From NCBI RefSeq assembly GCF_003334765.1, contig NZ_QOWT01000135.1: DNA of 335 bases. One strand, 5' to 3'. The notes beneath the pieces are model-generated. The model was not told where the DNA came from, did not search any database, and was given only the letters and a program-made list of their open reading frames with translations. The first letter of the stretch is position 1, and each line of letters starts with the position of its first letter. Source of the stretch: Escherichia coli. Its GTDB lineage: Bacteria > Pseudomonadota > Gammaproteobacteria > Enterobacterales > Enterobacteriaceae. Shown here one piece after another: positions 1 to 335 of this stretch. Made by a program: the position numbers and the translations under genes.

Positions 1-117
1 TACAGTCATCATGCCTGTCGTACGGAGTGTTATGCCATGACGGTCCATTATTACCGGCTGCGGGATTACGCCCTGCAACATCCGGAATACGACGCCATTA
101 TGCGCATTATTGACTGA
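1..117 (+). CDS. 3' end of upstream CDS (5'-partial; 38 codons + TGA stop at 115-117); probable antirestriction protein of the ArdB/KlcA family (YfjX/YafX-like)
   Basis: Frame 1 is open from position 1 to the TGA at 115-117 and translates to YSHHACRTECYAMTVHYYRLRDYALQHPEYDAIMRIID*. The C-terminal pattern (Y-x-x-L-R-x-x-A-x-x-HPE-x-x-AI-x-R-x-ID) matches my recollection of ArdB/KlcA-type antirestriction C-termini. Its position immediately upstream of a RadC-like gene matches the known CP4-island gene order. Family assignment is from memory, not a search. Confidence 0.6.
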   Translation, partial: YSHHACRTECYAMTVHYYRLRDYALQHPEYDAIMRIID

Positions 118-124
118 AAGGGGG
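117..124 (+). promoter_or_regulatory. Shine-Dalgarno / ribosome-binding site for the downstream RadC-like CDS
   Basis: G-rich purine tract AAAGGGGG at 117-124, overlapping the last base of the upstream stop codon. The spacer from the GGGG core to the ATG at 133 is 8 nt, within the usual 5-9 nt range. A second AGGA at 126-129 is only 3 nt from the ATG, probably too close to act as the main SD. Confidence 0.5.
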
Positions 125-132
125 CAGGAACA

Positions 133-335
133 ATGCAACAGATTTCCTTTCTGCCCGGAGAAATGACGCCCGGCGAGCGCAGTCTCATTCAGCGGGCCCT
201 GAAAACCCTGGACCGCCATCTTCATGAACCCGGCGTGGCCTTCACCTCCACCCGTGCGGCACGGGAATGGCTGATTCTGAACATGGCGGGACTGGAGCGT
301 GAAGAATTCCGGGTGCTGTATCTGAATAACCAGAA
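133..335 (+). CDS. yeeS: RadC-like JAB-domain protein (UPF0758 family; YeeS/YkfG/YfjY paralog group), N-terminal 67 codons, 3'-partial (continues beyond window)
   Basis: ATG at 133-135 is preceded by an SD and opens a frame with no stop to the window end. Translation: MQQISFLPGEMTPGERSLIQRALKTLDRHLHEPGVAFTSTRAAREWLILNMAGLEREEFRVLYLNNQ. I recognise this as the N-terminal region of the E. coli prophage-encoded RadC-like proteins; the JAB metal-binding motif (HNHPSG…) lies downstream and is not visible here. Which paralog (yeeS, ykfG, yfjY or a non-K-12 homolog) cannot be resolved from 200 bp; the symbol is given as the family representative only. Confidence 0.85.
   Translation, partial: MQQISFLPGEMTPGERSLIQRALKTLDRHLHEPGVAFTSTRAAREWLILNMAGLEREEFRVLYLNNQ

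Follow-up and report, generated by a model that had tools for sequence, protein, structure and literature searches.

A conserved 15-nt junction between an antirestriction gene and a RadC-like gene in an Escherichia coli island operon, with RadC translation probably led by its own Shine–Dalgarno site

The junction between an antirestriction gene and a RadC-like gene in the DNA analysed here, a 335-nt stretch from Escherichia coli (the window), is probably an ordinary internal junction of a polycistronic island operon, in which the RadC-like gene is translated mainly by way of its own Shine–Dalgarno (SD) site and translation of the upstream gene plays a secondary role. The anatomy of the junction, its conservation, the strength of the SD and the absence of terminator or promoter consensus sequences are established directly. 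A junction of this type is an already known kind of operon feature, and the K-12 paralogue has already been described as an operon.

The window reads ATT ATT GAC TGA (115–117), then the spacer AAGGGGGCAGGAACA (118–132), then ATG (133–135) CAA CAG, with exactly 15 nt between the stop and start codons. Translation of frame 1 as far as position 117 gives YAMTVHYYRLRDYALQHPEYDAIMRIID followed by the stop, the last residues being AIMRIID, and the frame from position 133 is open through the end of the window, beginning MQQISFLPGEMTPGER (in a longer read, MQQISFLPGEMTPGERSLIQRALKTLDRHL). The RefSeq annotation of a 12.3-kb locus identical to the window (L001) has the same gene ends, with an antirestriction protein and then a RadC family protein 15 nt apart. 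The 15-nt separation given in the original prediction is therefore exact by sequence, by reading frames and by RefSeq gene ends. Both genes lie on the same strand, and the gap could not accommodate both a terminator and a promoter, as expected of a junction inside an operon. The features of the window are collected in the table.

Table. Features of the window around the antirestriction–RadC junction (positions are those of the window unless a locus is named).
Feature	Position	Strand	Evidence
3′ end of KlcA/ArdB-type antirestriction gene, last 38 codons plus stop	1–117	+	translation; CDS L001 5632–6117; PF03230
TGA stop of antirestriction gene	115–117	+	sequence, translation, annotation of L001
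Non-coding intercistronic spacer, 15 nt	118–132	+	sequence; variable in class A alignment except GAGG core
Shine–Dalgarno AAGGGGG of RadC gene	118–124	+	duplex with 16S 3′ end; GGAGG in relatives, same columns
G5 homopolymer within SD; G4 or G5 by E. coli allele	120–124	+	E. coli allele alignment
Predicted hairpin, arms 122–130 GGGCAGGAA and 148–156 UUUCUGCCC, ATG in 17-nt loop	122–156	+	inverted repeat I3, centroid fold
5′ part of RadC-like JAB gene (YkfG/YeeS/LfgB family), 67 codons in window	133–335	+	CDS L001 6133–6609

The full upstream protein matches Pfam family PF03230 at 8.9e-35 over residues 66–161, with the whole model covered, and is classed by its sequence in the KlcA/ArdB antirestriction family. 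The downstream protein matches PF04002 at 7.3e-45 and scores 149.1 bits on TIGR00608, above the cut-off of 133.85, while falling below the equivalog cut-off of NF000642 (161 versus 180); it is classed, on the same kind of evidence, in the RadC-like JAB family. The full RadC-like protein also contains the stretch HNHPSGEVTPSKAD, which we take to be a JAMM-type metal-binding motif. The window matches a chromosomal stretch of E. coli NRZ14408, part of a genomic island, with 100% identity, and the 66 nt around the junction are likewise 100% identical in the strains Nissle 1917 and ATCC 25922. Of 5426 complete E. coli genomes, 4790 contain similar sequence, at a median of 2 and a maximum of 13 places per genome; among the matches listed from these complete genomes, every row carries the annotation of an antirestriction protein together with a RadC/JAB protein. 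The gene order of L001 is Ag43 fragment, DUF905, DUF932, antirestriction, RadC, DUF987, CbeA, CbtA, DUF5983, DUF957 and DUF4942. Two homologues of the upstream gene from K-12, YafX and YfjX, have been cloned as homologues of ArdB (PMC2836571).

The start of the RadC gene can be placed at ATG 133, which is kept in all relatives. An in-frame ATG at position 163 (Met-11) was considered as the true start and rejected because this codon is ATA in many relatives; it is also preceded by a GGAG only 2 nt upstream and by an anti-SD pairing of only −2.6 kcal/mol. The equivalent of this Met-11 is the annotated start only in yeeS of K-12, which is rearranged. At that locus (yeeR–yeeS, prophage CP4-44, L004 5230–5380) the antirestriction gene is absent, as are the first 10 codons of RadC, and the two remaining genes overlap by 4 nt (ATGA), an arrangement which from its sequence is apparently a by-product of deletion or rearrangement. 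A near-palindrome, ATTATGCGCATTAT, occupies window positions 97–110 in the last antirestriction codons and is probably due to chance, since it is not palindromic in the class A relatives described below. An Rfam scan of the window returned a single match at chance level (E = 0.68).

Conservation of the junction was followed in a scan with one genome per species, which yielded 66 loci with RadC relatives, mostly from Enterobacterales. The antirestriction gene stands directly upstream of the RadC gene in 52 of the 66, and the gap measures 8–15 nt in 50 of these 52. The 48 distinct Enterobacterales junctions, with an SD 4–8 nt before the ATG, fall into classes by gap length, viz. class A, to which the window and K-12 yafX–ykfG belong, with 15 nt after a TGA and GGAGG at spacer positions 3–7 (n = 24); class B, which includes K-12 lfgA–lfgB, with 8 nt after a TAA, a following ATGATG and an SD that overlaps the stop as TAAGGA (n = 14); class C, with 11 nt after a TAA and the sequence TAAGGAG (n = 9); and one junction with a gap of 9 nt. 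The position of the stop in the protein is the same in 48 of 48 junctions, with TGA in the 15-nt class and mostly TAA in the 8- and 11-nt classes, and the C-terminal RIID directly before it is kept in all relatives. No overlap of stop and start was found among the 48. Across class A the aligned coding flanks hardly vary, and the spacer varies more than any other stretch save for its GAGG core, as would be expected if the spacer is non-coding and selection acts on its SD only.

Several loci depart from this arrangement. In L034 (2683–2901) and L049 the antirestriction and RadC genes are parted by a 72-aa ORF of unknown function, which lies 9 nt after the former and 42 nt before the latter; the tight antirestriction–RadC junction is therefore not obligatory. 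In the more distant loci L053, L057, L066 and L067 the neighbour is a different one: in Providencia and Citrobacter the RadC gene directly follows that of a DUF932 protein, and in Gilliamella and Schmidhempelia there is a 4-nt overlap between it and an unrelated ORF upstream. The two closest relatives other than E. coli K-12, L005 and L028, whose RadC proteins are 98–99% identical, carry an ATG immediately after the stop (TGAATGGAGG; positions 2983–3003 in both), in frame with RadC, at the place where the window has AAG. Judged from sequence, this extra ATG could provide either a 5-codon N-terminal extension of RadC or a restart site at zero gap.

The closest described counterpart of the window is the yafX–ykfG pair of the K-12 cryptic prophage CP4-6, which likewise consists of an ArdB-type antirestriction gene and a RadC-like JAB gene, with TGA as the stop, a 15-nt gap and the SD in the same columns. 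YkfG is 82% identical to the RadC-like protein of the window, and the downstream order of DUF987, antitoxin and toxin is alike. The pair differs in its SD, which is the canonical AAGGAG and not the AAGGGGG of the window (an A-to-G difference at one base, with pairing kept as G·U), in the spacer bases outside the SD and in the genes that lie further upstream. A second pair, lfgA–lfgB (yfjX–yfjY) of K-12 CP4-57, is paralogous and has the same gene order, but differs in its 8-nt gap, its TAA stop, its SD (AAGGA) overlapping the stop and its double ATGATG start; LfgB is 72% identical to the window RadC, and its N-terminal 18 residues differ. The genes yfjXY–ypjJ–yfjZF have been treated as an operon, lfgABCDE; LfgA failed to complement the phenotype of an lfgA::kan mutant, which was attributed to lfgB, the gene that follows, i.e. 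the mutation behaves as polar (PMC10846083). The same study placed the binding of MqsA approximately 245 bp upstream of lfgA and reported repression by MqsA of 4-fold for lfgA and 3-fold for lfgB (PMC10846083).

Co-transcription of the antirestriction and RadC genes, as put forward in the original prediction, is very likely and is well supported, because the genes share a strand, are 15 nt apart, show no terminator or promoter consensus in signal scans, keep their adjacency and spacing among relatives and have a paralogous pair in the K-12 lfg operon for which lfgA::kan polarity and co-repression by MqsA are on record. Neither an intrinsic-terminator-like nor a sigma-70-like site came out of consensus scans of the window, which cover the interval 100–133 that the earlier prediction had singled out. 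On the + strand of L001 from 4700 to 8200, the same kind of scan found no intrinsic-terminator or promoter consensus save two weak stems inside cbtA/DUF5983. Terminator-like hairpins with long stems of 11–13 pairs lie instead at L001 4349–4375, 4654–4683, 8220–8246 and 9260–9286, where they follow Ag43, DUF905, DUF957 and DUF4942, respectively, and so bracket the block from DUF932 to DUF957; as sequence features, they suggest the extent of the transcription unit. The genes ykfG, yafX, yfjX, yfjY and yeeS have no entries in the E. coli supplement tables searched from SMRT-Cappable-seq and 3′-end mapping, and may be absent from these because they are silent in the laboratory.

The accompanying argument, that the junction leaves no room for a terminator or a promoter, stands as far as the gap itself is concerned, which is too short, and does not extend to a promoter inside the coding sequence or to Rho-dependent termination, neither of which needs intergenic room. 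Transcription of the island class is strongly affected by Rho: ykfG RNA rose 284-fold in the rho N340S mutant, the largest rise among 72 genes measured (PMC9160355). The log2 microarray responses of yafX and ykfG were 1.99 and 1.71 in rho N340S and 1.35 and 1.17 with bicyclomycin (PMC9160355 supplement), and since the two genes respond alike, Rho appears to act upstream of the pair and not at the junction. Termination by Rho at the junction, like an internal promoter, is thus made unlikely by the empty scans together with the similar responses of yafX and ykfG in the Rho mutant.

A separate transcript for RadC, begun at a promoter buried in the 3′ coding sequence of the antirestriction gene, would mean that the tight gap says little, as such a promoter requires no intergenic space. 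The hexamer TTGACT at 110–115, overlapping the stop codon, matches the −35 hexamer at 5 of 6 positions, but a −10 partner is lacking 16–18 nt downstream, where the candidates are AATGCA, ATGCAA and TGCAAC, and the hexamer was not flagged in the promoter scan; neither the window nor the + strand of the upstream gene, over its full length, gave a sigma-70-like hexamer pair in the consensus scan. The ‘RNA length’ of 128 nt listed for the ykfG probe might imply an annotated start nearby (PMC9160355 supplement), but this value, which was left out of account, conflicts with the primers of the same study (PMC9160355); by our mapping these lie at approximately +100 and +335 of ykfG. The polarity of lfgA::kan on lfgB points to transcription reading through into the second gene, which likewise argues against a RadC promoter of this sort (PMC10846083), and we consider one very unlikely.

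The two ORFs of the window share frame 1, with the stop and start 18 nt apart and no stop codon between them, and read-through of the UGA, in its TGA-A context, would join the two proteins through the residues KGAGT (spacer codons AAG GGG GCA GGA ACA). The TGA is always kept in the 15-nt class, as such a fusion would have it, but relatives L023, L026 and L029 have an in-frame TAA inside the spacer, the 8- and 11-nt gap classes are out of frame, and so are sister E. coli alleles with a gap of 14 nt. On account of the in-frame spacer stops in relatives and the out-of-frame gap lengths in other alleles the fusion was rejected, and it is barely credible as an account of the window.

The best duplex with the 3′ end of 16S rRNA pairs AAGGGGG at 118–124, over 7 bp including one G·U, at −10.7 kcal/mol and 7–8 nt before the ATG. 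The SD had been described as starting on the last base of the stop codon, A117, and this needs correction: as the best anti-SD duplex pairs 118–124, the SD starts at the first base after the stop. No other of the ten genes in the cluster has an SD as strong, that of the antirestriction gene reaching −6.2 kcal/mol, and of the 481 ATG triplets in the 12.3-kb locus, counted over both strands, only ATG 133 has an anti-SD match of this strength (1 of 481); the site is more than chance. A second SD candidate, AGGA at 126–129, was rejected, being only 3 nt from the ATG and not conserved. The window is the only class A sequence in which G replaces A in the SD core, with anti-SD pairing kept as a wobble. 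The G-run is also of variable length, being G5 in the window and G4 in the APEC O1 and O157:H7 alleles (L071 and L072), with gaps of 15 and 14 nt, respectively, so that the two genes do not stay in the same frame in all E. coli alleles.

With regard to translation, two mechanisms of coupling between neighbouring genes have been discussed, i.e. ribosome scanning with reinitiation and the unfolding of an inhibitory structure (reviewed in PMC12548453). The proposal that ribosomes finishing the antirestriction gene are positioned to reinitiate on the RadC gene was not supported, given the strongest SD of the cluster, the lack of overlaps in relatives and a low published coefficient at a gap of this size. 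For this route to supply most RadC initiations, the finishing ribosome would have to stay on the mRNA, slide 18–21 nt and be captured by the SD. The gap is indeed short, with its length conserved at 8–15 nt, and the SD lies directly after the stop or, in the 8- and 11-nt classes, overlaps it as TAAGGA(G); scanning models, among them SD-dependent 70S scanning, have been described (PMC12548453), and reinitiation is measurable at gaps of 0–25 nt (PMC4538824). The stop and start are nevertheless not as close as is usual for termination–reinitiation, standing at +15 here, +14 in the sister alleles and +8 to +15 in relatives, and the −4/−1 overlap typical of such pairs is present in 0 of the 48 distinct junctions.

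Published measurements also bear on the distance. In synthetic E. coli operons the reinitiation coefficient was 0.0072 at gaps of 0–25 nt versus 0.022 at −4 (PMC4538824), and in native E. coli pairs reinitiation was almost abolished by gaps of about 20 nt, with 80–100% of it lost at +38 nt and variable losses at +2 and +14 (PMC10666635); the data on distance dependence in the literature are mutually inconsistent (PMC12548453). Classical translationally coupled pairs with −4/−1 overlaps (ATGA or TGATG, e.g. hyfH–hyfI, ydbH–ynbE and menD–menH) share with the window co-oriented genes, a single mRNA and an SD near the upstream stop, but differ from it and its 48 relatives, which have no overlap (PMC10666635). 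The window also resembles E. coli same-strand pairs with SD-bearing gaps of about +9 to +12 nt, for which a terminator plus a promoter would be too long and an SD fits; the window gap of 15 nt (14 in some alleles) lies slightly beyond this peak (PMC10666635). Of 201 such pairs at +9 to +12 nt, 194 were polycistronic, and they were judged likely to initiate independently or with weak coupling (PMC10666635). The RadC gene moreover keeps working contexts beside other neighbours, i.e. after the 72-aa ORF at a 42-nt gap and directly after DUF932, and its SD is far stronger than that of the upstream gene (−10.7 versus −6.2 kcal/mol). Because of this difference in SD strength and a reinitiation coefficient of about 0.007, direct initiation should dominate, and reinitiation as the main source of RadC is unlikely.

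The second mechanism would require an RNA structure that masks the SD, such that RadC is made only if the antirestriction gene is translated. A hairpin of this kind is predicted between 122–130 and 148–156 (or, in another register, 116–123 and 144–151), from a 9-nt inverted repeat that is 89% complementary, with the ATG held in a 17-nt loop; such a fold would make the 3′ half of the SD inaccessible. Its predicted energy is −11.0 kcal/mol, and forcing open the bases up to 124–127 is predicted to cost 8–9 kcal/mol. In class A, GGAGGAA can pair with UUCCUUU of codons 4–6 in 95% of cells, and the SD has a predicted pairing probability of 0.5–0.9 in many relatives.

Controls for this structure consisted of counting the two registers on 23 class A junctions and of synonymous-recoding nulls on 7, then 46 junctions, besides shuffled sequences. 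The 111-nt region folds no better than its shuffles (z = +1.31); in the conserved register 0 pairs are changed on both sides, and partners slid by one column still pair in 82–86% of cells, while the register specific to the window pairs in only 60% of cells and the sister E. coli alleles carry an uncompensated A126C mismatch in the hairpin. Synonymous recodings of the RadC N-terminus gave an SD occlusion of 0.52 versus 0.53 observed and the same opening cost, with a median rank of 0.50 and none of the 46 junctions at 0.05 or lower. The idea that selection has kept the hairpin for coupling was accordingly rejected, there being no signal above the controls from shuffles, covariation or recodings, and it is for this reason kept only as an unproven rival; strict dependence of RadC on its unfolding is doubtful. 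According to the folding model the hairpin may form and make RadC synthesis partly dependent on translation of the antirestriction gene. Given a fairly stable predicted hairpin (−11 kcal/mol) and an SD that is mostly paired in the prediction, this dependence could exceed what is assumed here.

A more elaborate reading would see in the junction a tuned expression device. The hairpin and the G4/G5 tract would then fix how much antirestriction protein is made relative to RadC, and shift that ratio from time to time, and RadC synthesis would require translation of the upstream gene, perhaps owing to joint action of the two proteins. Compatible with this are a hairpin that is physically plausible for the window allele, a G-run that does vary between alleles and a pair that forms the tightest non-overlapping junction of the cluster; a device of this kind is considered highly improbable.

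The reading we favour, that of an ordinary junction served chiefly by its own SD, can be set out as follows. RNA polymerase would read straight across the 15-nt gap of an operon ordered DUF932, antirestriction, RadC/JAB, DUF987, CbeA and CbtA. The strong SD at 118–124 would recruit ribosomes directly to ATG 133, as the main route to RadC, and upstream translation would probably aid RadC only secondarily; translational coupling at the junction, if it occurs, is probably partial. A ribosome stopping at TGA 115–117 would cover or open the bases to about 124–127 and thereby melt the weak local hairpin, and continuous ribosome cover would leave no naked RNA for the loading of Rho in this strongly Rho-silenced class of island. 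Hand-over of the same ribosome by termination–reinitiation is likely to be a minor route at this distance.

The significance of these results beyond annotation is small. If the RadC protease and the antirestriction protein need a fixed stoichiometry, the junction would be a handle for testing it, although nothing here points in that direction. A short gap alone is no proof of ribosome hand-over. For annotation, the true start of the RadC-like gene is fixed at ATG 133, and not at the in-frame ATG 163, and the window is assigned to the widespread yafX–ykfG/lfgA–lfgB family of island operons.
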